Positions 898-30,945 of a DNA stretch of 64,000 nucleotides are shown in pieces. Within the stretch, counting starts at the first letter, position 1; the number at the start of each line of letters is the position of its first letter. The DNA lies in contig OZ219754.1 in the NCBI GenBank assembly GCA_964291295.2, positions 3,584,016-3,648,015 on the forward strand. The letters run 5' to 3'. The position numbers and the translations under genes are program-made. A model generated the notes under the pieces. The model was not told the DNA's origin and did no database searches. It saw nothing but the letters and a program-made list of their open reading frames with translations. Origin of the DNA: an uncultured Candidatus Binatia bacterium (GTDB lineage: Bacteria > Desulfobacterota > Binatia > UBA9968 > JAJDTQ01).

Positions 898-3243
898 ATG
901 TCCTCCACACCCCCCTTCTCCCGAAGCATCCTGCGGCACACACACCCCGTTTCACGCGCAACCACAAAAAACCCTGCCCGTGGCGTCTGGACCCTTCTGG
1001 TGTGGCTGTCCGCCGCTCCCCTTTACGCCGGGACCGAAGCCGAGACGGATTTCGCACGGGCCTACCAGCACTACTCCGCAGGCGACCACGCGCGGGCGAA
1101 GCCGCTCTTCCGGAGCGCACTGGACGACTCCACCCTGGTCCTGAGGGACTACGTCCTCTTCCATCTCGGACGAATCGCCGTCGGAGAGCGGCGATACAAG
1201 GAGGCGCGCGGCTACTTTGCAGAGCTGCAGGAGTCCTGCCCCGGAAGCGTCTGGTGCACCGAGGCTTGGTTCGCGTTTGTCGAACTCGACCTGGCCGGGA
1301 AGCGCCGCGAGGCAGCCGTCCGACGCGCCGCCGCGCTCGGGAAGACAGCATCCGGAAGAACGGCGCGGGCGCGGGCCGCGTACTACCTCGGCCAGGCCCA
1401 CGAGGCCCTCGGCAACCACCGCAAGGCGTACCGCCGTCACCAGGAGGCGCGCCGGCGGGCACCCCGCTCGGTGTGGGCCGGCCGCGCTCGGGAACGGGTC
1501 CGGCAGCTGCGGCGGGAGCATCCGGAACAGCTCGGGCTTCGCGGCGGCGACGCCATGCTCCGGGAGGCCGGGAAACTGCAACGAGAGCGGGAATACGCCG
1601 CGGCCGCGGAACTCTACCGGCGCATCCTGCGCGAGACCCGGTTCCGCCGGCTGTCACTGGAAGGGCTCGCCGACGTCTACCGGAAGATGCGGCGGCGCGA
1701 CCAGGAGGAGCAGATCCTGCGCCGGTACATCAAGCACTATCCGCAACGCGCCCGAGCGGGGGCGGCGCTGACCCGGATCGCCGTCATCCAGTGGAACCGC
1801 GAAGACAACGCGGGAGCACTGGAGACCTTGCGCACGTTCCGGAGGAAATATCCCGGGCATGCCCGACAGCGCTTCGCCGTCTACATCACCGGGCGCATTC
1901 ACGAATCCATGGGACGGCGGAAGGCGGCGATCCGGACTTATCGACGGCTCTTGGCCAAGGAGCACCGCTTCAGCCGGTTCCGCGGCGACGCGGCGTGGCG
2001 GCTGGGGTGGCTCCACTATCTGGCGGCCGACTACCCGCCGGCAAAAGCCCGCTTCCACGACCTTGCCGGCAGGCGCGGGGCCTACCGGACGGCCGCGGTC
2101 TTCTGGGAGGCTCGCACCGCCGAGAAGCTGGAGGATGTCGCCACCGCCGCGCGGCTGTACCGGCGCGTGGTCCGGGAGGCTCCGGAGTCCTACTACGCGG
2201 TCCCGGCATCCCGGCGCCTCGCCGGACTGGGGGCCGCCGTTGCCCACCCGCCCCCGCCCGAGCCCGCCACGCCGGCGGCCGGCGCCCCTCGCCTGGGTGC
2301 CCGGGCCGGGCTCCACCTCGCCCGGGCACACGCGCTGATGCGGCTCGGTTTGAACCGGCTCGCCCATGGCGAACTCGACCGGGTCCGCAGGCACGCGAAA
2401 CGCACTGCCGGTGTCACCCGGCTGCTCATGCGCGAGTATGCCCGGAGCCGCGCGCACCACCGCGGTCTCTCGCTGGCGCTGCGGTCGCCAACCTCTCCCG
2501 AGACGCGGCGGCTGCGCTATCCGCTGGCCTATTGGGACATCGTGCGGCGTCATGCCAACGACGTGGATCCTTACCTGGTGTTGTCGCTGATGCGGCAGGA
2601 GAGCCGATTCCAGCGGCGGGCCGTGTCCCCCGCGAATGCCTTCGGACTCATGCAACTGATCCGGGAGACCGCGGACAGGGAGGCCGCGAAGATGGGGCTG
2701 CCGGAGCCCGAAACGCCGCAGCTCTTCGATCCGGAACTGAACATCAGGCTCGGGGTCCACCACCTCAAGGGGCTTCTCCAATACTACGCCGGCAACCGGG
2801 TCAGGGCCCTGGCTGCCTACAACGCCGGCAAGGAGGCGGTGGCGCGCTGGACGCGAAACTTCGCGTCCGACGACGACGCGGCGTTCATCGAGCGGATCTC
2901 CTACCGGGAGACGCGCCAGTACGTGAAGGCCGTCCTGCGCAACTATCACGTCTACCGGACCCTGTACCGCGGCGCGGCGGCGTGCGGGAGGTCGCCCGCG
3001 CCCCCGAAGCGTTGCCAGGAACAGTCTTGCCGCCGCCGGCGGCCGGCGAGCGTGCCGCGCCGCTGGCGCCTCCTTGAGGCCGAAACCGGCATATCGACAA
3101 CGAATGCGGCTCCGGATGGACCGATGGACCACTGGAGGCGGACCGCCGGCCCTGCCTGCGTCGCCCGCGCCGGTCAGCAACCGTGTCCCCGGGGCGTTGC
3201 GGTGGACAAGTCCCCGCCGTTCCCTGTATTGATGATCCGGTGA
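898..3243 (+). CDS. slt: Soluble lytic murein transglycosylase (Slt70-like, TPR repeats plus SLT domain)
   Basis: TPR-like helical repeats followed by SLT motifs LMRQESRF, AFGLMQL, ALAAYNAG and ISYRETRQYVKAV. Start uncertain (ATG 898 chosen). About 90 atypical residues follow YRTLY. Confidence 0.88.
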   Translation: MSSTPPFSRSILRHTHPVSRATTKNPARGVWTLLVWLSAAPLYAGTEAETDFARAYQHYSAGDHARAKPLFRSALDDSTLVLRDYVLFHLGRIAVGERRYKEARGYFAELQESCPGSVWCTEAWFAFVELDLAGKRREAAVRRAAALGKTASGRTARARAAYYLGQAHEALGNHRKAYRRHQEARRRAPRSVWAGRARERVRQLRREHPEQLGLRGGDAMLREAGKLQREREYAAAAELYRRILRETRFRRLSLEGLADVYRKMRRRDQEEQILRRYIKHYPQRARAGAALTRIAVIQWNREDNAGALETLRTFRRKYPGHARQRFAVYITGRIHESMGRRKAAIRTYRRLLAKEHRFSRFRGDAAWRLGWLHYLAADYPPAKARFHDLAGRRGAYRTAAVFWEARTAEKLEDVATAARLYRRVVREAPESYYAVPASRRLAGLGAAVAHPPPPEPATPAAGAPRLGARAGLHLARAHALMRLGLNRLAHGELDRVRRHAKRTAGVTRLLMREYARSRAHHRGLSLALRSPTSPETRRLRYPLAYWDIVRRHANDVDPYLVLSLMRQESRFQRRAVSPANAFGLMQLIRETADREAAKMGLPEPETPQLFDPELNIRLGVHHLKGLLQYYAGNRVRALAAYNAGKEAVARWTRNFASDDDAAFIERISYRETRQYVKAVLRNYHVYRTLYRGAAACGRSPAPPKRCQEQSCRRRRPASVPRRWRLLEAETGISTTNAAPDGPMDHWRRTAGPACVARAGQQPCPRGVAVDKSPPFPVLMIR

Positions 3244-4289
3244 ACAACCACGAACCCGCACAAATCCTCTCCGCCCGAGAACGCGCGGCCTGGAGCGTCA
3301 CGGCTCCGGCAATTCTGTCCCCCGGAAGGCACTCCGCCGACGATACCGCCGCCGGCACGGTCAAGACCCTGTTCGACCGCCCCCGGTGGCTGGAGCCCCG
3401 CCACCTGTACGACGAGCGGGGTTCGTTGTTGTTCGAGGAGATCTGCGCACTGCCGGAGTACTACCTGACACGCACCGAAGCGGCCATCCTCGAGCGCGAG
3501 GCTGGCGCACTGATGCGGCTGGTGCCGGTGGAGTGCATCGTGGAGCTCGGCGCCGGCTTCTCCAGGAAGACCGTGCATCTGCTCAAGGCCCTGAGCCGGA
3601 CCCGCGGCCGCGGCACCTTCGCCGCGGTGGACGTGAGCGCCACCGCCCTCATGGCCTCCAGACGCATGGCCGAGGATCTGTTCCCGGAACTGGCGTTCGC
3701 CGGACTCGAAGCCCGTTTCGAGGACGCCATCACCAGCATCACCCGCGACATTCCCAAGCTCGTGGTGTTCCTTGGCAGCACCATCGGCAACTTCACCGCC
3801 ACCGACATGCTGCATTTCTTCACGCACCTGTGCGATCACTTGGGGTCCGACGACTACCTGCTGCTCGGGGTCGATCGGATCAAGGATCCCGCGGTCATCG
3901 AAGCCGCCTACGACGACCCCCGGGGAGTGACCGCCGCCTTCATCCTCAACGCCTTCCGCAACATCAACCGCACCACCGGCGCCACCTTCCAGCCGGAGAA
4001 GATCGCCTTCCGGAGCCGCTACAACCGGGAGCGGGCGCAGGTGGAGATGCACGGCGTCAGCACCGAAACACACCGCGTGGACCTTCCGCGGCAGTCCGCT
4101 TCGTTCACCTGGGAAAAGGACGAGGGGATCCTGGTGGAGACCAGCCGCAAGTTCGACCCCGACGCCCTGCAGATACAGTTGCGGTCGTTCGGGCTCCGGA
4201 GCCTGGGGCACTGGACCGACCCGAACCGCTGGTTCTCGCTGCTGCTCTTCCGCCGGAGCGCACGCACCGGCGACCCGGAATCAAGATGA
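3240..4289 (+). CDS. egtD: L-histidine N-alpha-methyltransferase (hercynine synthase)
   Basis: Motifs LYDERGSLLFEEICALPEYYLTRTE, VELGAG, FLGSTIGNF, AAYDDPRGVTAAF and ETSRKF. The GTG at 3240 overlaps the slt stop (GTGA). Confidence 0.92.
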   Translation: MNNHEPAQILSARERAAWSVTAPAILSPGRHSADDTAAGTVKTLFDRPRWLEPRHLYDERGSLLFEEICALPEYYLTRTEAAILEREAGALMRLVPVECIVELGAGFSRKTVHLLKALSRTRGRGTFAAVDVSATALMASRRMAEDLFPELAFAGLEARFEDAITSITRDIPKLVVFLGSTIGNFTATDMLHFFTHLCDHLGSDDYLLLGVDRIKDPAVIEAAYDDPRGVTAAFILNAFRNINRTTGATFQPEKIAFRSRYNRERAQVEMHGVSTETHRVDLPRQSASFTWEKDEGILVETSRKFDPDALQIQLRSFGLRSLGHWTDPNRWFSLLLFRRSARTGDPESR

Positions 4290-15491: not shown

Positions 15492-17619
15492 TCACCCCGT
15501 GAACTCGAAATCGGATTCGGTCAATTCAGACGGCGAAACCATGGAAAGCCGGATGCTCCAGTCACCGTCCGGTCCGGTAATCAACGTGGATGATGGCAGA
15601 TCGTAACTACGCACACCTCCTCTATAGCCAAAAGTCACTTCTTCCGTGAAGATCAAATCGGAAAACTTGATGCCGCTGGTGAACACGATCTTGTCCTCGT
15701 CCACGCTGAAGCGACGTATACGGTCATGACCGCTGTTCTTGTCGTACACAAAGATGTCCGCGCCCCTGCCGCCATCGAGTTCGTCGTCACCGTCGCCGCC
15801 GTCGAGGGTGACATCGGCATCGCTCTTCACCCACGGCGGCAACGGCACCGCGTTGTAAAACACGTTCTCGCCAAGAACCAGGGAGTCCGCCGTCACCCCC
15901 AACAACCGGACGGTGTCGTCGTCGCCATGGCGAATGATGGCATCGGCGCCGTCCTGCTCAATGACAAGCTCCTTGAACACATCATGCAAGATATGAAGCT
16001 TGTCGCCTTCCCCGAAATCGGTAATAGTGTCGTTGCCGTCTCCCGCAAAGAAAGAGAAAAAGTCGGCACCCTTGCCGCCCGTCAGCGTGTCGTCGCCGTT
16101 CCTGCCATGGATGGAGTCGTTGCCGTCGCCGCCGTAGAGCGTGTCATTGCCGCCGTTGTAGCCGCCGTCGACAAGGTCGTTGCCGTCACCGCCGTAGATT
16201 ACGTCGTCACCGCCCTTGCCATAGAGCCGGTCGTCCCCGCCGAGGCCGCGAATCGTGTCGTTGCCACTCCCCGCGATCAGTTCCTCTTCGCCCGCGCTGC
16301 CGACAAGAGTAATGCCGTTGCCGGATGGTGTATTCGTGGCCTCGCCGGTACCGGACGGCGTGTTCGCAGGCACACTCGCGCCCGGCGGGTCGCCTGCACT
16401 GGCGCCATGCGCCGTCGTTTCGCTATCGCCGCTGCCACCCATGGCCGACACGATGATGTCGTCCTCGCTCAGAGAGTCCGCCGTCACCCCCGACAGCCTG
16501 ATGGTATCGCCGCCCTCGCCATAGCTGATGACGGTATCGGCGCCTTCCTGATCGATACGGAGCGCCGTGAACCCGCCCACCACGCCATCAAGGCGGATAC
16601 TGTCTCCCGCCTCGAAGTCCGTCACGATGTCCTCACCGTCTCCGGCTTCGAACACGAAGGTGTCGTCGCCCCTGCCACCCTTCAGCGTATCGTCGCCCGC
16701 GCCGCCGGCCAGCGTGTCGTCGCCCTTGCCTCCCCCCAGCGTATCGTCGCCCTCCCCGCCCTCCAGCGTGTCGTCGCCCTTGCCTCCCTCCAGCATGTCG
16801 GCACCGGCACCGCCCCGCAGCGTATCGTCGCCTTGGCGGCCCCGCAGCGTATCGTCGCCCTCAAGGCCCATCAGGACATCGCCGCCCTTGCCACCCCCCA
16901 GCATGTCGGCACCGGCACCGCCCTTCAGCGTGTCGTCGTCCTCGCCACCCCGCAGCGTGTCCGCGCCTTTGCCGCCCGTGAGCACCCTCCTGCCCAAGAG
17001 CTGGCCCCGCAAGGCGTCGCCGTCGTTGCCACCCTGCGGGGTATCCTGCACCGGAGCGCCTTGCTGAGGGGCACCCTGTTGAGCGTTGTCCTGCGGCGGG
17101 TCGCCCTGCGGAGCGGCGCCCTCCTCGCCCCCCGTCTCCACCGGAAGGAAGTGGAAATCCTCCGCGCCGAGAGAGGCCGCGGTCACGCCCTGCAACGTGA
17201 TCCTGTCTCCCTCGCCGTAGCGGATGACCGCATTGGTGCCCTCCTGCTCGATCACCAGTTCCGGGAACCCGCCAGACACCCCGGCAATCTCGATGGTGTC
17301 CCCCGCCTCGAAATCCACGATCCTGTCGGCACCGTCCCCCACCGCGAATGCGAAAGTGTCCGCCCCCAAGCCGCCAAACAGCTTGTCCCCGCCCCGACCG
17401 CCTCTCAGCCTGTCGTCGCCTTGCCCCCCGAACACGGAGTCGTTCCCAGAACCCCCCTCCACCGTGTCGTCCCCGTTGCCGCCATACAGCCGGTCGTCGC
17501 CGTCGCCCCCGTTCAGCCTGTCGTCGCCCATGCCGCCGTCCAGCGTATCGTCGCCAATACCGCCCGTCAGGATGTCGTCGCCCTCACCACCGGTCCTTGA
17601 AATAACCTTGTGCCATCAT
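15492..17619 (-). CDS. RTX (GGxGxD nonapeptide) Ca-binding repeat protein, T1SS-substrate type; 5' frameshift, so either a pseudogene or translated from the internal ATG at 17531
   Basis: More than 25 GGxGxDxL repeats in several blocks and an acidic C-terminus (ESDFEFTG). GGAGGAG RBS plus ATG ATG at 17619 reads MMAQGYFKDRW*, while the RTX repeats run in the +1 frame from ~17610. Confidence 0.85.
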
Positions 17620-18179
17620 GGTTCTCCTCCTGTAATCCGGTCGCCGTCAGCCAACCCCGGAAATGCTTCACCATACACAGCCGATACACAGCCGATACAT
17701 TCCTTGCCGTATAGCCCTGCTGTCGCACACACCACTACCTGCAACACGGCTACCTTCAAGCCCTTACTCCCCCCCCCTGTCAACCCCCTTCAAGCCAAGG
17801 TCTTGTCCAAGGAACCAAGTTCTAGCCTGTATCCCCGTCTGACCACCAAGGAGCGGTTTCCCACCAGGAAAGGCCCTGCTTCTCCCATTTCTCCTCAACC
17901 GTCATCTGCTTCCAATCCTTGATCATCATCCTCTCCATCTCAGCTCGCCGCCATCCCGTATTCCATGAAAAGGCCACCGGTTTCCTGAATGCGGCCAGGA
18001 CTGTCCCTTCTGAAGGTTTGTGTCGGGACGAGAGCCGGGCGCAAGGGTGTTTGGCGCCATCCTTGCGGTTGTCGGTGTACGGGTATGGTCGAGGGATGAG
18101 AGCCGGCGGGGTGAGCGCGGGATGGGTTTGGACGGTCGGATGGCCTGCGGGCGGCGTTGAGGCCCGGCTCCCCCGAATG

Positions 18180-18420
18180 CGGCCGCGGTCAGGCCCGGGT
18201 CACCGCGGCGATGCCTGGCCGCGGTCGAGTTGCAGCCGTCGGCGGGTTTCGGCGAAGCTCGCGCGGGCGCGCCGGTTGGTGAAGATCACCGCGAGCGCGA
18301 TGTGCTTGAGGCCGGCGAGGTTCGCCGCTCCGTGTCCGCTCCGGATCAGGCAGCCTCCCCGCCGATTCAGGTCCTCCACGACCCCGTGTCCGAACCTCCT
18401 CCTCCGACAGCGCATACCCT
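18180..18420 (-). mobile_element. ISAs1-family transposase remnant (C-terminal fragment)
   Basis: CLIRSGHGAANLAGLKHIALAVIFTNRR...SFAETRRRLQ matches the ISAs1 C-terminal pattern (ED.cRiR.ghga.Nla.lrhiAl). No intact DDE ORF is present. Boundaries approximate. Confidence 0.65.
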
Positions 18421-18681
18421 TCCGGAGCCTCACCGTGGATCGGGCTCGACCCCTTGCAGATGCGTTCCCACATTCCCCAAGCATGACTGCCCCAACGCTG
18501 GAACGTCACTGCCTGTCACCAAACCTCTCCCACCCGCACCGGACACGCAGCCTGGAACAGCCCTGGGCACCGGCGGCGCTGGCCGGGGCGACATTGCCGC
18601 CCATCCCACTGCGGACTTCCAGGCCCCGAATCACGACGTCCCCGCCCTCGACCGGCAAGCCCGGAGCCGTTCCGCCCGTGC

Positions 18682-18710
18682 TTGACAGCCCTCCGGCGAG
18701 GACCTACCAT
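18682..18710 (+). promoter_or_regulatory. Sigma70-type promoter for the amidohydrolase-GH84-senA-senB operon
   Basis: TTGACA (18682-18687), 17-bp spacer, TACCAT (18705-18710), ~80 bp upstream of ATG 18792. Confidence 0.7.
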
Positions 18711-18791
18711 GCCAAGATTCTGTCCGGGACAGGCGCACGGACTTGGGGAAAGAACCCTCCGAGAGAACTCCCGGCTTCGCGGAGAAAAACG

Positions 18792-19916
18792 ATGGCCAGG
18801 CAAGGCTTCAAGGCAATGGACTCCGACATGCACGTGTTCGAGCCTCACGATCTCTGGGAGCGATACATCGACCCGGAGTTCAGGGACCGTGCGCCCAGGG
18901 GCCTGCAGCGCGATTTCCGCGACCTCGGCGTCGAGGTGGACGGCAAGATCCTTCCCGTGCCGAGGCGCCCGGAAAACCCGCACCTGAGGGACTACCGCCT
19001 GGCCACCCTCAAGGAAAAATACGGCGACGTGGCCGCGCGCAACTTCGACGGCGTCAGCCAGGTCATGGCCATGGACAAGGAAGGCCTCGACGTGGCGTTC
19101 CTGTTTCCCACGCGCGGGCTATTCGTCCTCGGCATCGACGGCCTCGACCCCGAACTGGCCGCGGCCATCTCCCGCGCCTACAACGACTGGCTCCACGACT
19201 TTGCGCAGGAGGCTCCCGACCGCATGGCCTGCGTCGCCATGGTGCCGCCCCAGAACGTCGAGGCGGCCGTGGCCGAAACCAGACGGACGGTCACCGGAAA
19301 GGGATTCCGGGGCATCTTCATGCGCCCCAACCAGACCAACGGCAAGTGCTGGAGCGACCCGTACTACGATCCCCTGTGGGAGGTGTGCCAGAGCCTGAAC
19401 GTGCCGGTGGGCTTCCATGAGGCCGGGCGCGTCCATCAGCCCCAGCCGGCCATCTCCCGATTCATCCCCTCCTTCACCATGTTCAACACCCTGAGCTTCC
19501 CGATGGCCAACATGTTCGCATGCGCGGACATGATCTACGGCGGCGTCATGGAGCGCTTCCCCAGGCTCAGGGTGGCGTTCCTGGAAGGCAATTGTTCCTG
19601 GCTCCCATGGCTCCTGTACCGCATGGGGGACTACATGGAATCGGTGGGCAAGGCGGAGTACCCGGAGCTCCGGCTCGAGCCGCTGGAATATTTCCAGCGC
19701 CAGTGCTACGGGGCCGTCGAATGCGACGAGATCACCGCCAGGCACATGCCCGAGTACGGACTGGAGGACAATCTGGTGTTCTCCACCGACTATCCGCACC
19801 TGGACGTCAAGTATCCCCACGCGCTGGACACGTTCCTGGAGATGCCGTTCTCCGAGGAGTCCAAGCGGAAATACCTCTGGGACAACTGTGCCCGGCTGTA
19901 CAACATGGGTCCGTAA
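18792..19916 (+). CDS. Amidohydrolase_2 family metal-dependent hydrolase/decarboxylase
   Basis: DSDMHVFEP, RAYNDW, YDPLW, VAFLEGNCSWLPW, FSTDYPH and DNCARLY. GGAG RBS precedes ATG 18792. Confidence 0.92.
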   Translation: MARQGFKAMDSDMHVFEPHDLWERYIDPEFRDRAPRGLQRDFRDLGVEVDGKILPVPRRPENPHLRDYRLATLKEKYGDVAARNFDGVSQVMAMDKEGLDVAFLFPTRGLFVLGIDGLDPELAAAISRAYNDWLHDFAQEAPDRMACVAMVPPQNVEAAVAETRRTVTGKGFRGIFMRPNQTNGKCWSDPYYDPLWEVCQSLNVPVGFHEAGRVHQPQPAISRFIPSFTMFNTLSFPMANMFACADMIYGGVMERFPRLRVAFLEGNCSWLPWLLYRMGDYMESVGKAEYPELRLEPLEYFQRQCYGAVECDEITARHMPEYGLEDNLVFSTDYPHLDVKYPHALDTFLEMPFSEESKRKYLWDNCARLYNMGP

Positions 19917-21036
19917 CACCCCGGTTTCCACATTCGCGCGGCGGGGCATCGTCGAAGGCTTCTTCGGTCCCCCGTGGAGCCGGGCCCACCGCGCGGCCAT
20001 GTTCGCGTTTGGCGCCGCGCGCGGCATGAACACCTACCTCTACGCACCCAAGGACGACCCCTACCACCGGGAGCGCTGGCATCAGCCCTACCCGGAGACG
20101 GAATGGCGCGAACTCTGCGCGCTCATCGACGCGGCCCGGGGCTGCGGCATCGACTTCGTCTACGGCTTTCACCCGGGCCGGAACCTCCGCTTTGCCGCGG
20201 CGGAACCGGTGCGCCTTCTGCTCGACAAGGCGGCGCGTCTCCAGGATCGGGGCGTGCGCACCTTTGCGGTGCTGTTCGACGACATTCCGTCGCGGCTGAC
20301 GCACACCGAAGACAGGAAGAGGTTCGACGGCAGCCTGGCCAAGGCCGAGTCCCTGTGGCTCGAGGCGGTGCTGGAACAACAGCCCGCGGGCCGCGATGCG
20401 GCGTGGTGGTTCTGTCCCTCGTACTACACGCCCGACCCGCTGTTGGCCCAGACCTTCGGCGAGTTCGAGCCGGAGTTCCCCGAGACCGTCGGGCGGTACC
20501 TGCCGGCGCCGGTCGACTGCTTATGGACCGGCCCCAAGGTGGTGCCGGAAAGCGTCACCCTGGAACACATGGAGGAGATCGGCCAACGGATGGGTCACCG
20601 GCTGCTGCTCTGGGACAACTACCCGGTCAACGACCTGACCCGGGCCGACGCCATGCATATCGGCCCCCTCACCGGCCGAGACCCGCGGCTGCCGGAGCGG
20701 GTGCACGCGCACTTGGCCAACCCGCTCCTGCAGGAGCAGCTCAGCTTCATTCCCCTGGCCACCTGCTTCGACTATGCGCGGGAGCCCGGCACCTACGACC
20801 CGGAAACGAGTTGGGATGCGGCGGTGACGGAACGGTTCGGCGCGGCCCACCTGGAACACTGGCGGGCACTCCGGCGGTTCTGCGAACAGGATGCCGGCGG
20901 CGGCGCGGCGAGGTGCCCCGAGTCCGAGCGGGGCACGCTGGAAGCGGCCCACGCCTACCTGCAGGCCCACCGCGGCGAAGCGTGGTGCCGTGAATTCGAG
21001 CCGTGGCGGGAGCGGCTGGAACAGGCGCTCCGGTAA
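19888..21036 (+). CDS. GH84 beta-N-acetylglucosaminidase (O-GlcNAcase-like catalytic domain, no signal peptide)
   Basis: RGIVEGFFGPPWS, YLYAPKDDPYHRERW, catalytic LFDDI, WTGPKVV and WDNYPVND. Start codon uncertain. Confidence 0.9.
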   Translation: MPGCTTWVRNTPVSTFARRGIVEGFFGPPWSRAHRAAMFAFGAARGMNTYLYAPKDDPYHRERWHQPYPETEWRELCALIDAARGCGIDFVYGFHPGRNLRFAAAEPVRLLLDKAARLQDRGVRTFAVLFDDIPSRLTHTEDRKRFDGSLAKAESLWLEAVLEQQPAGRDAAWWFCPSYYTPDPLLAQTFGEFEPEFPETVGRYLPAPVDCLWTGPKVVPESVTLEHMEEIGQRMGHRLLLWDNYPVNDLTRADAMHIGPLTGRDPRLPERVHAHLANPLLQEQLSFIPLATCFDYAREPGTYDPETSWDAAVTERFGAAHLEHWRALRRFCEQDAGGGAARCPESERGTLEAAHAYLQAHRGEAWCREFEPWRERLEQALR

Positions 21037-21040
21037 CATC

Positions 21041-22348
21041 ATGGACGACAGGACCGTCACCACCCGCGAACTGCTGGCAACCCTGGAAGAGGTCCGTTCC
21101 CGGACCCTGGGTCTGGTGGAGGATCTGTCCGGCGCGCAACTCACCGTGCCCATGTGGAACATCGTCAATCCCCCGCTCTGGGAGATCGGACATGTCTCCT
21201 GGTTCCACGAACGGTGGGCGCTGCGGCATCTGCGCGGCCGCCGCCCCATCATTGCCAACGGCGACCAACTGTACGATTCCGCGGCCGTGCACCACGACAC
21301 CCGCTGGGCGCTGGCGCTGCCGCCGCTGGAGGAAACCCTCGCCTACAAGGCCCGGGTCCTCCGGGAGATCACCGAAGCGCTTCCCGCCCAACGGCTCGGT
21401 CCGGAGGAGACCTGGTTCCACAGGCTGGTCCTCTTTCACGAGGACATGCACGCGGAGGCCATGACCTACACGCGCCAGACCCTGGGCTATCCCCCGCCTC
21501 GGTTCGCGTCCGGACGCGCGGCGCCCCGGGGCGGGCCGTGCCCCGGCGATGTGGCGGTGCCGGGCGGTGCGTTCATCCTCGGCGGCACGCCGGATCTGCC
21601 CTTCGTCTTCGACAACGAGAAGTGGGGGCATCGGGTGACCGTGGCACCATACCGCATGGCCCGGGCGCCGGTAACCAACGAAGCGTTTGCCGCATTCGCC
21701 GACGACAACGGCTACCGGAATCCCCGGTGGTGGAGCACCGAGGGCTGGAACTGGCGGCAGGCCGAGAACCCGGCGCATCCCGTCTACTGGAAGCGGGAGG
21801 CCCCGGGGCGGTGGCTGGAGCGGCTCTTCGACCGATGGTTGCCACTTCAGCCCGAACTGCCGGTCATCCACGTCAACTGGTACGAAGCCGAGGCCTGGTG
21901 CCGCTGGGCCGGACGCCGGCTGCCCACCGAGGCGGAGTGGGAAATGGCCGCGGCCTCCGGTCCCGGCCCGGGAGCGGCCAAGCGCGGCTACCCGTGGGGC
22001 GACGCCCCGCCGGACCCGGCCTGCGGCAATCTCGACTGGGCGGCCGGCGGACGGCTGCCCGTGGACGCGCTGTCCGCGGGCGACAGCGCCTTCGGCTGCC
22101 GGCAGATGATCGGCAATGTGTGGGAGTGGACAGCCGACACCTTCCACCCCTATCCCGGATTCGTGCGGGATCCCTACAAGGAATACTCGGAACCCTGGTT
22201 CGGCCACCGCAAAGTGCTGCGCGGCGGCTGCTGGGCCACCCGCTCGCACCTGATCCGCAACACCTGGCGGAACTTCTTCACGCCGGACCGGCGGGACGTC
22301 CTGGCCGGCTTTCGCACCTGCGCGCGCGAGCGGCACGACCGCCGCTAG
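21041..22348 (+). CDS. senA: Selenoneine synthase SenA (EgtB-like DinB plus FGE-sulfatase domains)
   Basis: NPPLWEIGHVSWFHERW, LYDSAAVHHDTRW, FHEDMHAEA (Fe-binding His), FDNE, RRLPTEAEWE, GNVWEW, PYKEYSEPWF and RNFFTPDRRD. Immediately upstream of senB. Confidence 0.9.
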   Translation: MDDRTVTTRELLATLEEVRSRTLGLVEDLSGAQLTVPMWNIVNPPLWEIGHVSWFHERWALRHLRGRRPIIANGDQLYDSAAVHHDTRWALALPPLEETLAYKARVLREITEALPAQRLGPEETWFHRLVLFHEDMHAEAMTYTRQTLGYPPPRFASGRAAPRGGPCPGDVAVPGGAFILGGTPDLPFVFDNEKWGHRVTVAPYRMARAPVTNEAFAAFADDNGYRNPRWWSTEGWNWRQAENPAHPVYWKREAPGRWLERLFDRWLPLQPELPVIHVNWYEAEAWCRWAGRRLPTEAEWEMAAASGPGPGAAKRGYPWGDAPPDPACGNLDWAAGGRLPVDALSAGDSAFGCRQMIGNVWEWTADTFHPYPGFVRDPYKEYSEPWFGHRKVLRGGCWATRSHLIRNTWRNFFTPDRRDVLAGFRTCARERHDRR

Positions 22349-22361
22349 ACTGGAAGACAAC

Positions 22362-23342
22362 TTGGCACGAAAGAACCCCGCGCCGACCCGGGTTGCCCTC
22401 GTGACCCCCGCCGGGCCCACGCGGCGTACGGGCAACCGGATATCCGGAGGCAGGTGGGCGCGCATCCTCCGGGCCTCGGGACATCGGGTTGCAGCCCTGG
22501 ACCGATATGAACGCGAGCCCTGCGACCTGCTGATCGCACTCCACGCCCGGCGCAGCCATGACTCCATCCGGCGGTTCCGCGACCGGCATCCCGGCAAGCC
22601 GCTGGTCGTGGTGTTGACCGGCACGGACCTCTACCGCGACATTCACGTGGACCCGGACTCCCGGGAATCCCTGGGGTTGGCCGACCGCCTGGTGGTGCTG
22701 CAGCGCAAGGGGCTGGACGAACTCGCTCCGGGGCTGCGCGGGAAGACCCGGGTCATCTACCAGTCCGCCTCGGCCCGCCCCGGCCGCCCCGGCGACCCCG
22801 GCAAGCAGTTCACCGTGGCCGTGGTGGGCCACATGCGCCCGGAGAAGGACCCGTTCCGGACGGCCATGGCGGTGCGTTCATTGCCGCGCGCATCACGGGT
22901 CCGGGTGGTGCACATCGGCGCCGCCTTCAGCAACGGCATGGCCCGGCGCGCGGCGCGGGAGGCGGAACGCAATCCTCGCTACCGGTGGCTGGGCGAACTG
23001 CCCCACTGGAGGACGCGGCAACTCCTGGCCAACAGCCACCTGGCCTCCCTCACCTCGCGCATGGAGGGCAGCTCGAACGTCCTGTGCGAGGCGCTGGCCT
23101 CCAGCGTACCCGTGGCGGCCTCCAGGATCTCCGGACTGATGGGCACCCTGGGAGAAGATTTTCCGGGCTACTACGAACTCGGCGACACCGCCGGCCTGAA
23201 GCGCCTGCTGCTCCGGGCCGAGAACGACCCGCCTTTCTACCAGAGCCTGGCGCGGCACTGCGCCGAGGTGGCGCCGCTGGTGAATCCCGAGCGCGAGATC
23301 CGGACGTGGCAGGGATTGATCGATGAGCTTACGACGGGTTGA
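22362..23342 (+). CDS. senB: Selenosugar synthase SenB (GT-B glycosyltransferase)
   Basis: VTPA...TGNRIS..RWARIL, IALHARRS, VLTGTDLYRD, GHMRPEKDP and SRMEGSSNV. TTG start 13 bp after senA. Confidence 0.92.
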   Translation: MARKNPAPTRVALVTPAGPTRRTGNRISGGRWARILRASGHRVAALDRYEREPCDLLIALHARRSHDSIRRFRDRHPGKPLVVVLTGTDLYRDIHVDPDSRESLGLADRLVVLQRKGLDELAPGLRGKTRVIYQSASARPGRPGDPGKQFTVAVVGHMRPEKDPFRTAMAVRSLPRASRVRVVHIGAAFSNGMARRAAREAERNPRYRWLGELPHWRTRQLLANSHLASLTSRMEGSSNVLCEALASSVPVAASRISGLMGTLGEDFPGYYELGDTAGLKRLLLRAENDPPFYQSLARHCAEVAPLVNPEREIRTWQGLIDELTTG

Positions 23343-23366
23343 AGCGAGGGACCGGTCGGACAGCAC

Positions 23367-24524
23367 TCAGCCGGACAGCACCTCGATCAGATTGTCCGCC
23401 ACGGTGTCCAACTCGCGGCGGGTGATGACCAGCGGCGGCAGCAGCCGGATCACCGTCGATCCCGCGGGCAGCGCCAGCACGCCTTTCTCCAGCAACGCCA
23501 CGAGATGGGGCTGGGACTTCTCCCTGAGTTCGATGCCGATCATCAAGCCCAGCTGGCGGATCTCTCGAACCCTGGGCAAATCCGCGGCCCTGAGCCGCTC
23601 CACCAGACGGGCACCCTTCTCCTCGGCGGCCTCGGCCAGCCGCTCGTCGATCATGGCGTCGATGGCCGCCAGCGCGGCGGCGCATGCCAGCGGGTTGCCG
23701 CCGAAGGTGCTGCCGTGGCGCCCCACCGGCACCTGGACGTTGTCGGCGCAGACCACCGCGCCCATGGGGATGCCTCCGGCCATGGCCTTGGCCAGGCACA
23801 GGATGTCGGGCTCGAGACCGAAATGCTCGCAGGCGAACATCCGGCCGGTGCGGCAAAAGCCGGTCTGGACCTCGTCGACAATGAAAAGGACGCCCCGCTC
23901 CCGGCACAGTTCGCTCACCTGGGCGAAGAACTCGGCCTGGCCCAGATTGACGCCGCCCTCGCCCTGGACGATCTCCAGCATCACCGCTGCGGTGCCGTCA
24001 TTCACCTTCTCCGCCAACTTGGCGAAGTTGTTGAAGGGCGTGAACTGGAAGCCCTCGACGACGGGCAGGAAGGGTTCGCGGTACTCCTTCGTGAACGTGG
24101 CGCTCAGCGCCCCCATGGTGCGGCCGTGAAATCCGCGCATGGCGCACACGAACTCCTGCCTGCCGGTGGTGAAGCGGGCGAACTTGATGGCCGCCTCGAT
24201 GGTTTCGGTGCCCGAGTTGCACAGGAAGGCGCGGTTGAGATTGCCGGGGGTGATGCCGGCCAGCCGTTCCAGCAGCCGCGCCCTGACGTCGTTGTAGAAG
24301 ATGCCGGGGCAGCTCATCAGACGTCCGGCCTGCTCGGCCACCGCCCGCACCACTCCGGGGTGGCCGTGCCCCAGGTTGGCGACGCCGTGGCCGGCCACAC
24401 AGTCGATGTACTCACGACCCTCGTCGTCCCAGACCCGGGCGCCCTCGCCGCGCACCAACACGACGTCGCGCTTGGGATAGACATCGAACTCGTACCGTTG
24501 CTGCAACGCCTTCAGGTCCGTCAC
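23367..24524 (-). CDS. lysJ: [LysW]-aminoadipate semialdehyde transaminase (class III PLP aminotransferase, ArgD/LysJ)
   Basis: NSGTETIEAAIK, GFHGRT, EIVQGEGG, DEVQTG, LAKAMAGG and HGSTFGGNP. Last gene of the lysW cluster. Confidence 0.9.
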   Translation of the reverse strand: MTDLKALQQRYEFDVYPKRDVVLVRGEGARVWDDEGREYIDCVAGHGVANLGHGHPGVVRAVAEQAGRLMSCPGIFYNDVRARLLERLAGITPGNLNRAFLCNSGTETIEAAIKFARFTTGRQEFVCAMRGFHGRTMGALSATFTKEYREPFLPVVEGFQFTPFNNFAKLAEKVNDGTAAVMLEIVQGEGGVNLGQAEFFAQVSELCRERGVLFIVDEVQTGFCRTGRMFACEHFGLEPDILCLAKAMAGGIPMGAVVCADNVQVPVGRHGSTFGGNPLACAAALAAIDAMIDERLAEAAEEKGARLVERLRAADLPRVREIRQLGLMIGIELREKSQPHLVALLEKGVLALPAGSTVIRLLPPLVITRRELDTVADNLIEVLSG

Positions 24525-25312
24525 CGGATCACCGTTCCTTTCCCCGCCAGGGCGTCCCGCACCGGATGCGCCACCCGGCCGTCGCCCATGATGACCTTTT
24601 TCGCGCCCTCCTCGAACAGCTGGCGCAGAGCCCGCATCTTGCGCTTCATGCGCCCTTCCACCTGGGCCTCCCGCTGCTCGAGTTCGGCAACGCGGAGGGC
24701 GGGCACCACGGTGCTCTCGTCGTCCTTGTCCGCGAGAAACCCGGGTGCCTCGATGAGTTGCAGCACCACCTCGGCATGAAAGGCGGCCTGGAGCACGTTG
24801 AGGATGTCGTCGTTCTCCGAGTTGATGGCGGTGTGGTGCTCGTCGAGAATGGGGATGGACAGCACCGGCACGTAGCCCCCGTCAAGCAGCCACTGGAACA
24901 ACTCCTTGTTGGCGCTCCTGGGCTTGCCGGAGAAGTCCCGGACGATGACGGTCTTGCCGTTCTTCCGCACCCGGATGCCCTTGTTGCGCCGTCCCTGGAT
25001 GGCGCGGCCGTCGATGCCCGAGAGGCCCACGGCGTTGACCCCGTTCTGCTGCAGCAACTCCACGATGCGCTTGTTCTGAACGCCCGCGTAACCCATGAGG
25101 ATGGCGTCGAGCGCGGCCTTGTCGGAAAGCACGCTGGTGTAGCCCGACACCGACGTCACCACCTGGGTGGGGCTGCCCAGCCTGGCCGCGATGGCGTCCC
25201 GCAACGCGTTGGCGCCGTGCACCACGATGAAACGGTCCGTTGCCGAGGCCAGATCCTCGGCAATGCCCGGCAGGTTGATGGCGCCGCCGCCGCCGACCTT
25301 CACCAGAATCAT
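24521..25312 (-). CDS. lysZ: [LysW]-aminoadipate/[LysW]-glutamate kinase
   Basis: MILVKVGGG, VVHGANA, VTSVSGYTS, GLSGIDG, GRMKRKM and GKGTVI. Start at 25312 (ATGA overlap). Confidence 0.9.
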   Translation of the reverse strand: MILVKVGGGGAINLPGIAEDLASATDRFIVVHGANALRDAIAARLGSPTQVVTSVSGYTSVLSDKAALDAILMGYAGVQNKRIVELLQQNGVNAVGLSGIDGRAIQGRRNKGIRVRKNGKTVIVRDFSGKPRSANKELFQWLLDGGYVPVLSIPILDEHHTAINSENDDILNVLQAAFHAEVVLQLIEAPGFLADKDDESTVVPALRVAELEQREAQVEGRMKRKMRALRQLFEEGAKKVIMGDGRVAHPVRDALAGKGTVIR

Positions 25313-25947
25313 CGGAGCCGCTCCACCGTGTCGTTGGGGATCATGCGCCACTCCGGCAGGTCCGCCACGGTCTCGGAACTGACGGTGAAACCGCCGCCGC
25401 TCTCGCGCAAGCGCAGCCTGAAGTACTCCGGCGCCTCGTTGTAGAACGATCCCACGTAGACATTCTCCCGGTCCGCGATGATCATGTTCATGGCCCGGAC
25501 GTAGCGCGTCCTGCGGACCAGCAGATCCATCCCCTTGCGCAGGGCCGCGGCCATGTCGCCCTTGTCGAAGCGCTTGATGGTGTTGAACACCTTTTCCGCG
25601 CCGATGCGGCCTTCCGCGCGGATCCGGACACCCCGCAACTCGCCGTTGAACGCGAACACGTACCGGTGGTCGGAGAACGGCATGTTGTTCTCCACCACGA
25701 CGTTCTCGTCCCGGAACGCGCTGCGGGCATGACCCACCAGCAGCGTCGTGGCGCCGAACCGATCCAGGTCGTCCTCCCAGATGGGCCTGATGTTGCGATA
25801 GATCCGCCACGCGCCGTCCACGAGGAAGGCGCAGCCCCAGCCGTGACCCTGGTATTCGGGGCTGCGGCGGGCGATGTCGGCCAGCTCCGTCAGGCGCGAG
25901 CCGATGTCGAACGGCTCCCGGTTCTTGACGCACAACAGGCGGCACAT
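25309..25947 (-). CDS. Class II glutamine amidotransferase / Ntn-hydrolase (EgtC/YafJ/Dug3-like)
   Basis: N-terminal nucleophile MCRLL, HGWG, GHARSA, NNMPF, FAFNGEL and SSE. Stand-alone, 212 aa. Confidence 0.88.
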   Translation of the reverse strand: MCRLLCVKNREPFDIGSRLTELADIARRSPEYQGHGWGCAFLVDGAWRIYRNIRPIWEDDLDRFGATTLLVGHARSAFRDENVVVENNMPFSDHRYVFAFNGELRGVRIRAEGRIGAEKVFNTIKRFDKGDMAAALRKGMDLLVRRTRYVRAMNMIIADRENVYVGSFYNEAPEYFRLRLRESGGGFTVSSETVADLPEWRMIPNDTVERLR

Positions 25948-25966
25948 GGCTGACGGCCCGGACGCG

Positions 25967-27019
25967 CTAGGCGCCCGGGTGCAGCCCCGGGAACTCCAGT
26001 CCCAGGGTCTCCTCGAAGCCGCTCATGAGGTTGAAGGCCTGAACCGCCTGGCCCGAGGCGCCCTTCATGAGATTGTCCAGCGCGCTCAGCACCACCAGCC
26101 GGTCCGACCCTTTCTCCTTCTGGAAACCGATGTCGCAGTAATTGGTGCCGCTCAGCAGCTTCGGTTCCGGATAGCGGTAGATCCCGTCGGCCTCCTTCAC
26201 GATGCGGAGAAAAGGCTCCCTGCCGTAGACCTCGCGGTAGAGCTTCCAGACATCCTTTTCTTCAAGCGGTTCCTTGAGGAACAGGTGGCAGGTGGCCAGC
26301 ACCCCCCGCACCCTCTCGATGGAGGTGGCGGAAAAGTAGACCCGGATGGGCTTGCCGAAACCCAGTTCCTGGACGATCTCCGCGCCGTGGCGGTGCCGGG
26401 TGGGCATGAACGAGCGCACGGCGCCGCTCCGTTCCGGATGGTGGGACGCGTCGGTGGCAACGCGGCCGCCCTCGCTGGAGCCCACCTTGACCTCCACCAC
26501 CGTGCGGTCCGTGTCCACCAATCCTTTGCTGAAGAACGGGTAGATGCCGAGGATGGTGGCGGTGGCGTTGCAGCCGGCGCCGGTGACGAGACGCGCGCCC
26601 CGGATCTCCTCGCGGTGCAGTTCGGGAACGCCGTAGACGAACTCCTCGAGGAGATCCGGGCGCGGGTGGTGCGTCCCGTACCAGCACCGGTACGCCTCCG
26701 CGTCGTTGAGCCGGAAGTCGGCGCTCAGGTCGATGAGCTTCGGCGCCAGTGCCCGGAACGAATCGATGCGCTCCATGGCCTGGCCGTGGGGCAGGCAGAG
26801 GAACAGCAGGTCGCACGGCTTGATTTCGTCCATCGTGCGGAAGCGCAGCTGCGTCCGCTTGCGCAGATTGGGATGGGCCTTGAACAGAAACTTGCCGGCG
26901 TAGCGCTCCGAGGTGACGTCGCCGACCTCCACCCGGGGGTGCCAAAGGAGCAGGCGCAGGAGCTCGCCGCCGGTGTAGCCGGAGCCCCCCACGATGGAGA
27001 CCCTCAGCTTGTCCGCCAC
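25967..27019 (-). CDS. lysY: [LysW]-aminoadipate 6-phosphate reductase (ArgC/LysY)
   Basis: IVGGSGYTGGELLR, IDLSADFRL, YGVPE, GCNATA, SHHPERSG and DNLMKGASGQA. GTG at 27019 with a GGAGG RBS. Confidence 0.9.
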   Translation of the reverse strand: MADKLRVSIVGGSGYTGGELLRLLLWHPRVEVGDVTSERYAGKFLFKAHPNLRKRTQLRFRTMDEIKPCDLLFLCLPHGQAMERIDSFRALAPKLIDLSADFRLNDAEAYRCWYGTHHPRPDLLEEFVYGVPELHREEIRGARLVTGAGCNATATILGIYPFFSKGLVDTDRTVVEVKVGSSEGGRVATDASHHPERSGAVRSFMPTRHRHGAEIVQELGFGKPIRVYFSATSIERVRGVLATCHLFLKEPLEEKDVWKLYREVYGREPFLRIVKEADGIYRYPEPKLLSGTNYCDIGFQKEKGSDRLVVLSALDNLMKGASGQAVQAFNLMSGFEETLGLEFPGLHPGA

Positions 27020-27074
27020 GGCTGCCGCCCTCCTCCCCGGCACGTCCCGCGCATCCGCTCCCCGCGCCGGCCCA

Positions 27075-27947
27075 TCAGGCCACGTCCCTGCGCGCCTGCT
27101 CTTCCCGCGCCGCGCCGAGCACATGCGCGACGATGAGCCCGGGAATGTTCACCCCGGTGGTATCGATGCTGTTCCGGAACTCCATGGTGTAGTTGACTTC
27201 GTTGACCAGAAGGCCGCCGACGGTTTCAAGCAGGTCCACCGCAACGATACCGCCGCCCACCGCCCGGGCGGCGCGGAGCGAGAGGTCTCGCAACTCGTCC
27301 GTGACCGGGCAGTTCTCGGCGCGTCCTCCCCGGGCCGTGTTGGTGATCCAGTGCCCGCTGTAGCGGTAGATGGCGGCGACGCACGCGTCGCCCACGACAA
27401 AGCTCCGGATGTCGCGCCCGGTCTTCTCGATATACTCCTGAACGTAGAAGATGGAGTGGTGGTAACTGCCCAGGATCGCCTTGTGTTCGAGGATCGTTTC
27501 GGCCGCGTCCCGGTCGTTCACCTTGGCCAGCAGCCGGCCCCAGGAGCCCACCGCCGGCTTCAGCACCACCGGGTAGCCCATCGCCTCGATGGCCTCCAGG
27601 GTGGATTCCTCGGTGAAGGCGATGCGCACCTCGGGCTGGGGCACGCCGTGCTCCTGCAGGTGTACCGAAGTGAGGATCTTGTCGCCGCATACCGTGGCCA
27701 CCGACGACGCGTTGATGCAGCGCACCCCCGCGCTCTCGAAGAGCCGCAGCCCGTGCAGCGCCCGGGAATGGTTGATGCACCGCTCCAGCAGAACGTCCAG
27801 GTCGAACCGGTCCTTGCCCAGGTTGAATGCGAGCCGCCGGTCGTCGATCAATTGGAGTTCCACGCCGGCATGCCGGCGAAACTCCTTGATCAGCAGCTTC
27901 TCCTCCGGGCGCACCAGTGAATGCAGCAACCCGATTTTCAAGCTCAT
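27075..27947 (-). CDS. lysX: Alpha-aminoadipate--LysW ligase (RimK-like ATP-grasp)
   Basis: [33 protein letters not shown]...[10 protein letters not shown] and [11 protein letters not shown] (LysX-type rather than ArgX-type signatures). Confidence 0.95.
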
Positions 27948-28321: not shown

Positions 28322-29353
28322 TCACAATCCGTAGTAACGCTTGGGATTGTCGCACAGGATCTTCTTGCGCAGACCGGGGCTGACATCCTCCCGGGCAAAG
28401 AAGTCCGGCAGATCGCGGAAGAATTCCGAGCGCGCCCGCTCGTGGGGAAAGTCCGAGGCCCACAGCACCTGATCCCCGCCGAGCCTCTCCAGCACGTATG
28501 GCAGCGCCTTCTCGTCCACCTCGCAGGTGAAGAACAGGTTGCCGCCGCGAATGATGTCGCTCGGGCGCTGCCTCACCGCCAGCGCCGCGCCGCGCCGCTC
28601 CCAGTTCTCGTCCAGCGCGTCCATCATGAACGGCACCCAGCCGGTGCCGCACTCCAGGTAGGCCACCCGCAGGTCGGGGAAGCGGTCGTACACGCCGGCG
28701 TTGATCATGCTCATCATCTGCACCATCTGCGGCATGGCGTGCTCCAGCGGTCGCGCCTCGGCCAGGCTCTCGAAGATGTCGAGGCCCAGGCCCGCCACCG
28801 GACCGCCATGGACCGCCAGCGGACAATCCAACCGTTCCGCTTCGGCGTAGATCGGGTCGAACCGGCTTCCCCCCAGACCCGCCAGCGGCGCCATCACGGA
28901 CGGGATCACGCCCGCCACCATTCCCAGTTCGTCCACGCACCGGCGCAACTCCGCGACCGCGGCGTCGATGTCCTGCACCGGCAGCAGCGCCACCCCCTTG
29001 AGCCGGTCCGACTGACGCCCGAAACAGTCGTACAGCCAGTCGTTGTAGGCCCGGGCCACGGCCGTCGCCCAGCCCTTGTTCCGGATCTGGCCGTGGAACA
29101 GCGCGTTGCTGGGATAGAGGATGGTCCGGTGGATCCCGGACTCGTCGAGAAAGCTCAGCCAGTTGGCCGCGTCCGGCACCTCCGCCTTGTGGCGGGACGA
29201 CATGCCGCGCATCCAACCGTCGGTGAGGGGAAACAGGTAATACTCCCGGGTCCAGTCCTTCTCGGACCAGGGCGCGGGCAGATAGCGGCGCAGGTCCTTG
29301 TCCTGGTCCACCACGTGGCCGTCGGCGTCGATAATGTCATGTTCGCATTCCAT
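28322..29353 (-). CDS. Amidohydrolase_2 family protein
   Basis: IDADGHV, ARAYNDW, VAYLECGTGWVP, WASDFPH and DNPKRYYGL. Confidence 0.92.
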   Translation of the reverse strand: MECEHDIIDADGHVVDQDKDLRRYLPAPWSEKDWTREYYLFPLTDGWMRGMSSRHKAEVPDAANWLSFLDESGIHRTILYPSNALFHGQIRNKGWATAVARAYNDWLYDCFGRQSDRLKGVALLPVQDIDAAVAELRRCVDELGMVAGVIPSVMAPLAGLGGSRFDPIYAEAERLDCPLAVHGGPVAGLGLDIFESLAEARPLEHAMPQMVQMMSMINAGVYDRFPDLRVAYLECGTGWVPFMMDALDENWERRGAALAVRQRPSDIIRGGNLFFTCEVDEKALPYVLERLGGDQVLWASDFPHERARSEFFRDLPDFFAREDVSPGLRKKILCDNPKRYYGL

Positions 29354-29398
29354 GTCGGCCTCCACCGCCGGACTCGTGCGGCACCCCGGCGTCGTGCC

Positions 29399-30868
<1,470 letters not shown>

Positions 30869-30945
30869 GCGTGTCTCCTCGAGGCCCGTGCCGCACGTCA
30901 TGAAAAGGCTTGCGGCGCAGAACACCCGCACTGGGCGTGTGGAGG

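Follow-up and report, generated by a model that had tools for sequence, protein, structure and literature searches.

Introduction

Selenoneine biosynthesis was described in 2022 as a three-enzyme route with a spontaneous last step (bioRxiv 10.1101/2022.04.13.486033). According to the available text of this preprint, SenB produces beta-1-seleno-N-acetylglucosamine (SeGlcNAc) from UDP-N-acetylglucosamine (UDP-GlcNAc) plus selenophosphate, SenA couples this selenosugar to hercynine, and the resulting hercynyl-SeGlcNAc selenoxide undergoes internal elimination to a selenenic acid; the reduced selenoether is given as a side product formed in vitro with dithiothreitol. A glycosidase step is not part of the pathway as described. 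Here, we analysed a stretch of 64,000 nucleotides (the window) from an uncultured Candidatus Binatia bacterium (GenBank assembly GCA_964291295.2, contig OZ219754.1, positions 3,584,016 to 3,648,015), in which senA and senB share an operon with a gene for a glycosidase of family GH84, the family of the O-GlcNAcases. We found this gene to be linked to sen genes throughout one order of Candidatus Binatia and tentatively propose that its product serves selenoneine synthesis in that order as a dedicated accessory enzyme in the cytoplasm, where it would cleave the hercynyl-SeGlcNAc selenoether.

The described senA-senB-senC cluster of Variovorax paradoxus (bioRxiv 10.1101/2022.04.13.486033, available text) and the Binatia locus share neighbouring senA and senB equivalogs that point the same way; a further resemblance is an egtD-like gene in the broader surroundings of the Binatia locus. 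The two differ in that the Binatia cluster contains no selD/senC gene and in that GH84 precedes senA, as does an Amidohydro_2 gene in the window's genus. In a literature search we found no paper linking selenoneine to GH84, O-GlcNAcase or Binatia, although the supplementary co-localisation tables of 2022 could list such neighbours.

A GH84 gene within a selenoneine operon

The operon (18682-23342) has the order Amidohydro_2 gene-GH84-senA-senB, with all four genes on the + strand, and consists of the following features:

18682..18710, + strand: sigma-70-like promoter TTGACA-N17-TACCAT (motif scan and conservation in same-genus loci)
18792..19916, + strand: Amidohydro_2-family gene, 374 aa (PF04909, E 5e-33)
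19888..21036, + strand: GH84 beta-N-acetylglucosaminidase homologue, 382 aa, cytoplasmic, sen-linked (PF07555, E 4e-79, 266.4 bits)
21041..22348, + strand: senA, selenoneine synthase with DinB_2 and FGE-sulfatase domains (NF041186; PF03781 and PF12867)
22362..23342, + strand: senB, selenosugar synthase of the GT-B type (TIGR04348)

Both sen genes exceed the curated NCBIfam cut-offs, so that the identities assigned to them in an initial annotation, which had been made from the sequence alone, could be confirmed. SenA scored 507.4 bits with NF041186 (cut-off 420), compared to 337.9 bits with the EgtB model, which is below the cut-off of 360, and 146.3 bits with the OvoA model. SenB scored 383.7 bits with TIGR04348 (cut-off 300), and a genome-wide search with the same model finds the same gene.

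The genes are tightly packed. GH84 starts with a GTG at 19888, overlapping the end of the amidohydrolase gene by 29 nt, and its TAA stop codon (21034-21036) is followed 4 bases on by the senA ATG at 21041; the senA stop codon (22346-22348) is in turn followed 13 bases on by the TTG start of senB at 22362. Reading of the junctions hence reproduced the 4-bp and 13-bp gaps given initially. TTGACA-N17-TACCAT is the sole sigma-70-like site within 17500-23600, where shuffled sequences lead to an expectation of 0.4, and its uniqueness taken alone is thus weak evidence. In an alignment of eight same-genus loci that we had picked, TTGACA-N17-TA..AT is invariant at the orthologous position in all eight and the flanks are not conserved, which upholds the promoter that had been proposed upstream of the four genes.

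Conservation of the GH84-sen linkage

Is the arrangement a peculiarity of a single genome? Among 31 relatives including the window's own genome, GH84 was found in 28 and SenB in 27, and in 26 of the 27 genomes with both, the two genes share a contig and lie within 3.5 kb; G024, with GH84 at a contig end, is the exception. We also surveyed a class-level sample of 201 genomes with a completeness of at least 90%, the tallies of which include the unpublished genome G568 (a distant GH84 match, on which no claim rests). GH84 of at least 56% identity was present in 32 genomes, all of them within the window's order, namely in 13 of 13 genomes of family f1 plus that of the window, 3 of 3 of f2 and 15 of 16 of f3, and GH84 of at most 41% identity in 33 genomes of other families. 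SenB was found in 32 genomes of the window's order and in seven elsewhere in the class. The order holds 31 genomes with both genes, and 30 of these keep the pair within 4.2 kb on a single contig. Only GH84 was found in G008 and only SenB in G552, and both assemblies are fragmented. Confinement of the linkage to this genome, which by the terms of the initial annotation would have refuted its proposal, is clearly not observed: the linkage is kept across an order-level clade. A phylum-wide survey, in which SenB occurred in 4 of 401 genomes, is given little weight as the phylum is very broad.

The gene order within this clade is variable. In the window's genus, amidohydrolase-GH84-senA-senB was found at 11 of 11 loci. 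Family f3 shows GH84-senA-senB, often with VOC-superfamily and alpha/beta-hydrolase genes between GH84 and senA. In family f2, GH84 is located 144-335 bp from senB, and a full senA over the cut-off is present in all three genomes, either on another contig or 0.8-1.4 Mb away; locus L054 reads egtD-GH84-senB, with senA not adjacent. The GH84-sen linkage survives these rearrangements.

Beyond the class, an alignment of 13 orthologues served as query in a scan of 185,579 species, each represented by one genome, and 80 loci were kept; scan and genome surveys overlap, as several loci stem from the same genomes. Sixty loci encode a GH84 of at least 50% identity to that of the window, and SenA or SenB is present in the stored flank of 46 of them; no sen gene was found at any of the 20 loci whose GH84 has at most 41% identity. 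Where at least 5 kb of downstream sequence was available, SenB was found at 30 of 35 clade loci (exceptions: L039, L048, L067, L080 and L084). A quick IQ-TREE phylogeny with 59 clade rows including the window's, from which two short-match loci of the 60 were left out, places all 47 sen-linked rows inside a sen-type GH84 clade, the stem of which measures 1.64 changes per site and has a support of 100 in the Shimodaira-Hasegawa-like approximate likelihood ratio test. Neighbourhood survey and phylogeny, both of which had been suggested initially as a check, thus revealed a sen-linked clade.

A subclade from Burkholderiales/Betaproteobacteria (L048, L057, L060, L063, L075 and L084) nests among the Binatia rows, which suggests horizontal transfer, with mis-binning as another possible cause. 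In one of the genomes, G035, the GH84 gene (L084) is split between two reading frames, and both sen genes are in fragments; a co-decay of GH84 and sen in G035 is not used as evidence, since an assembly consensus error is equally possible.

The loci of the f3 type carry a recurrent set of further genes. At L043, L049, L061, L064, L068, L074 and L081, the interval between GH84 and senA holds at least one of three genes, namely a gene of the VOC/glyoxalase superfamily, an HsaD/BphD-like alpha/beta-hydrolase gene and an NMT1-like gene; of these three, L081 has the hydrolase alone. LysE, fatty-acid-desaturase-like and Gfo/Idh/MocA sugar dehydrogenase genes recur around these loci, as does an AmpG-like gene of the major facilitator superfamily (MFS) convergent with senB. 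A fused permease-OpuAC ATP-binding cassette (ABC) transporter with its ATPase is found as well, an architecture which we take to be that of EgtUV. A short gene of about 270 aa that has the FGE-sulfatase domain only is divergent from GH84 at L019, L021, L024 and L026 and at 20 of the 60 clade loci (L028-L092); its product reaches 106 bits with the SenA model and has no DinB domain.

Features of the GH84 protein

The match to PF07555 (266.4 bits against a gathering cut-off of 25) covers profile positions 1-292 of 295, and 38 solved GH84 chains match the protein at E <=1e-10. The closest one is 5diy_A (E 9e-65), followed by NagJ of Clostridium perfringens, BT_4395 of Bacteroides and human OGA, with all of which it shares the catalytic-domain match, the DD pair and the GlcNAc-binding residues. 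5diy was deposited under the name hyaluronidase and is presumably a bacterial O-GlcNAcase. The GlcNAcase equivalog model NF041654 gave 185.8 bits against a cut-off of 1000, with only profile positions 144-427 of 732 matched.

The D131-D132 pair lies in an LFDDIP motif, which does not vary among the orthologues that we aligned (13 of 13); the pair occurs in at least 85% of the distant GH84s and aligns to the DD pair of NagJ, in line with the intact LFDDI pair reported initially. K55, D131, D132, Y180, W242, N244, D249 and N278 are common to the clade (at least 95%) and to 20 distant GH84s (at least 85%). D131/D132 constitute the canonical catalytic pair and the remaining six residues the canonical GlcNAc -1 site, an assignment for which we lean on human OGA numbering, and the catalytic apparatus is intact as judged from these positions. 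The Pfam domain begins at residue 19, which leaves no room for a signal peptide, and its absence had been noted correctly.

We defined residues as clade-specific when present in at least 95% of the sen-type clade and at most 10% of the outgroup (20 rows). Beside the catalytic centre, F26 is Phe in at least 95% of the clade, and all 20 outgroup rows have Tyr here; by way of the EGF-Y-G motif, we take it to be the position of human OGA Tyr69. This tyrosine is close to the sugar and the catalytic machinery according to the available text of a study on the human enzyme (PMC2973230). H95 is likewise specific to the clade (Ser or Ala in the outgroup), as are F102 and F197 (mostly Tyr in the outgroup) and W73, W157, W169, W173, W174, C211 and C293. 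Also the clade's own is a C-terminal segment that comprises about 60 residues and includes W325, Y357, W366, E369 and W373. Compared to the O-GlcNAcases named above, the protein of the window is thus short (382 aa), carries a C-terminal segment of its own, has Phe in place of Tyr beside the catalytic centre, branches off on a long stem, lacks a partner O-GlcNAc transferase (OGT) and is encoded in a small-molecule biosynthetic operon.

Could the enzyme nevertheless be an ordinary cytoplasmic beta-N-acetylglucosaminidase, either a substitute for NagZ in muropeptide recycling or a protein O-GlcNAcase, with a link to sen only by descent or through a loose role in GlcNAc supply? We consider this very unlikely. 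The genome of the window, which is 99.13% complete, contains no GT41 OGT (PF13844; control genomes were positive), so that protein O-GlcNAc cycling is improbable. The same genome has no GH3/NagZ and an AmpG-family permease over the cut-off (365 bits), from which the idea of a NagZ substitute arises. Further points in favour of a housekeeping role are the absence of GH3 from f1 (0 of 13) and f2 (0 of 3), the AmpG-like MFS gene (254 bits, under the cut-off of 350) that adjoins senB at 24 of the 60 clade loci and the closest solved structure, 5diy, as a presumable O-GlcNAcase deposited as a hyaluronidase. However, GH3 and the sen-clade GH84 occur together in f3 (16 of 16 and 15 of 16, respectively), and f8 is mostly devoid of GH3 (present in 5 of 31) and has GH84 in 0 of 31; the class tallies for GH3 include the unpublished genomes G568 and G493. 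GH84 presence hence tracks SenB and not the absence of GH3, and the persistence of the linkage through changes of gene order also argues against a housekeeping function. If peptidoglycan sugars are recycled in the window's own genome, which has AmpG and neither GH3/NagZ nor NagA, other enzymes must be used.

Proposed role of the GH84 enzyme

Most likely, GH84 is a pathway-dedicated enzyme that cleaves beta-GlcNAc. Its substrate and chemistry are inferred, and we rank hercynyl-SeGlcNAc first among the candidates, followed by 2-acetamidoglucal, SeGlcNAc and finally a housekeeping substrate. In the mechanism that we tentatively favour, part of the selenoxide would be reduced to the stable selenoether in the thiol-rich cytoplasm before it can eliminate. 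The canonical -1 site of GH84 would bind the GlcNAc moiety of this selenoether, and D131/D132 would cleave the anomeric C-Se bond by substrate-assisted catalysis to give GlcNAc and selenoneine, an excellent leaving group, whereby scarce selenium would be saved from a dead end. The sen-linked clade may accordingly be composed of natural Se-glycosidases acting on hercynyl-SeGlcNAc (or SeGlcNAc) in an EgtE-like release step, which we regard as possible at a level short of probable. O-GlcNAcases reportedly cleave thioglycosides. EgtE and OvoB are pyridoxal phosphate (PLP)-dependent C-S lyases of the ergothioneine and ovothiol pathways and act on a cysteinyl sulfoxide. The proposed role of GH84 would be analogous, as a carrier is removed from the chalcogen after a coupling of the EgtB/SenA type; however, there is no homology, and in place of a PLP beta-lyase, GH84 would be a glycosidase that hydrolyses an anomeric C-Se bond.

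Several observations weigh against cleavage of the selenoether. The characterised pathway is stated, in the available text of its description, to need no EgtE-like step (bioRxiv 10.1101/2022.04.13.486033). The sen-clade GH84 is absent from 7 of 7 SenB-positive Binatia genomes outside the window's order, three of which have a distant GH84 on another contig. The nested Burkholderiales GH84 genes mostly do not adjoin sen genes (L048, L060, L063, L067, L075 and L084); in five genomes with an unlinked GH84, senA and senB over the cut-off are encoded elsewhere in three, fragmented copies are present in one, and one has neither. No senA or senB was found in the GH84-bearing G031, for which completeness is not given. 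In a sample of Burkholderiales, taken as the order of one metagenome-assembled Burkholderiales genome, SenB exceeded the cut-off in 107 of 301 genomes (a tally that includes the unpublished genome G626), and a PF07555 search of 80 of these 107 found no GH84 at all in 78. The two positive genomes are the seed genome and G776, in which GH84 and SenB are on different contigs. As 78 of 80 SenB-positive Burkholderiales genomes do without it, GH84 is not a general step of the pathway: it is the accessory of one lineage, neither a general missing step nor a core step. This limits the interpretation in the initial annotation, of which real senA and senB genes and a GH84 embedded in one operon with them stand, and an additional step of the pathway in general does not. 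Finally, GH84 of f2 is kept with senB and not with senA, which fits SeGlcNAc as substrate at least as well.

Following this last point, GH84 might hydrolyse 1-seleno-GlcNAc or its diselenide to GlcNAc and selenide, and SenB and GH84 would together buffer or store reactive selenium, or form a proofreading cycle. The adjacency of GH84 and senB without senA, in f2 and at L054, is in favour of such a turnover, and the beta configuration and the GlcNAc specificity would fit. We nonetheless judge it unlikely: alongside SenB, it would amount to a futile cycle spending UDP-GlcNAc and selenophosphate, the f2 genomes keep a full senA (3 of 3) and thus the whole pathway, and the changed residues beside the catalytic centre would be left unexplained.

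A further explanation, less improbable than selenosugar turnover and still doubtful in our view, relates to the sugar by-product. According to the available text of PMC11030361, 2-acetamidoglucal is the sugar released in the OvsA reaction and was observed as its co-product, and the SenA reaction is stated to be analogous. GH84 could hydrate the 2-acetamidoglucal arising from selenoxide elimination back to GlcNAc, with protonation at C2 leading to the same oxazolinium intermediate as in normal GH84 catalysis, and would thereby clear a potential inhibitor of GlcNAc-processing enzymes or recycle the sugar. Such processing requires only an intact -1 site, the part that is conserved, and the evidence of the GH84-sen linkage applies to it equally; the VOC-superfamily and alpha/beta-hydrolase genes between GH84 and senA in f3 could mean further handling of the by-product. 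On the other hand, a trace-element pathway carries a tiny flux, which leaves little value in salvage, and the window's own genome has no NagA (best match 20.9 bits against a cut-off of 225.65), which makes salvage of GlcNAc carbon a weak driver. In f2, moreover, GH84 does not stay with senA, the source of the glucal. N-acetyl glycals are reported to inhibit hexosaminidases tightly instead of serving them as good substrates, which also weighs against hydration, and our literature search found no paper on glycal hydration by a hexosaminidase.

Returning to cleavage of the selenoether: what would the producer gain? A GH84 gene in the sen operon of about fifty related species points to an undescribed step of sugar removal or sugar recycling, and the conservation of a clade-specific glycosidase in this position implies enzymatic handling of the GlcNAc carrier by at least some producers, be it for release or for later clean-up. 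Our literature search found no report of the natural cleavage of a C-Se glycosidic bond. If GH84 indeed cleaves it, this would reveal a route by which scarce selenium is retrieved from a dead-end intermediate; GlcNAc would be a removable selenium carrier, by which cells gain a handle on selenosugar turnover, and the enzyme would provide a practical tool for higher yields in engineered selenoneine production.

Other pathway genes and genomic neighbourhood

Hercynine could be supplied by the product of a gene 14.5 kb upstream of the operon:

3183..4289 (start codon not fixed), + strand: egtD-like histidine methyltransferase gene (PF10017, E 4e-89)

With TIGR03438, this gene scored 287.2 bits against a cut-off of 290.9 (match at 3360-4247 of the window), and an egtD homologue adjoins GH84 at 20 of the 60 clade loci. 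A genome-wide SelD search found no selD/senC adjoining or overlapping senB, and the cluster is hence without the canonical third gene. The sole SelD over the cut-off is encoded at C1:690884-691807, about 2.9 Mb from senB (C1:3606407). The selD gene (locus C1:689384-693307) lies behind a selB-like gene and has an in-frame TGA within the motif A-G-U-A-A-K, indicating that the organism probably uses selenocysteine.

The product of the first gene of the operon had no NCBIfam match; among solved structures, PtmU3 (6omp, E 1.4e-35) is the nearest to it, ahead of decarboxylases of the LigW type. The amidohydrolase gene precedes GH84 at 11 of 11 same-genus loci and at 11 of the 60 clade loci. Its initial assignment to the operon therefore holds within the window's genus and not outside of it, and we rejected it as a general pathway member. 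Within 28322-30931 (- strand), a second Amidohydro_2 gene, 27% identical to that of the operon, adjoins an aldehyde dehydrogenase gene, with which it probably forms an aromatic-acid or ACMSD-type catabolic pair.

At its end (23342), senB faces a convergent transaminase gene of the argD/lysJ type, which is located on the - strand and belongs to a LysW-type amino-group-carrier cluster (23367-27947, - strand) with a LysJ-like transaminase, a LysZ-like kinase, an ArgC/LysY-like reductase and a LysX-like ATP-grasp gene. A short distance upstream of the operon, 15492-17531 (- strand) encodes a protein of 679 aa with ten RTX calcium-binding nonapeptide stretches (PF00353, E 1e-58), and the 1.1 kb between this gene and the promoter (about 17600-18680) is without a convincing gene; in other same-genus loci, ABC-transporter genes occupy the region upstream of the promoter. 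At the far side of the window, a reading frame that stays open for more than 10,112 codons (33662-64000, - strand) continues past the window end. Its final 999 residues contain matches to Calx-beta and fn3 domains, and the spacing of shadow open reading frames on the + strand suggests long internal repeats.

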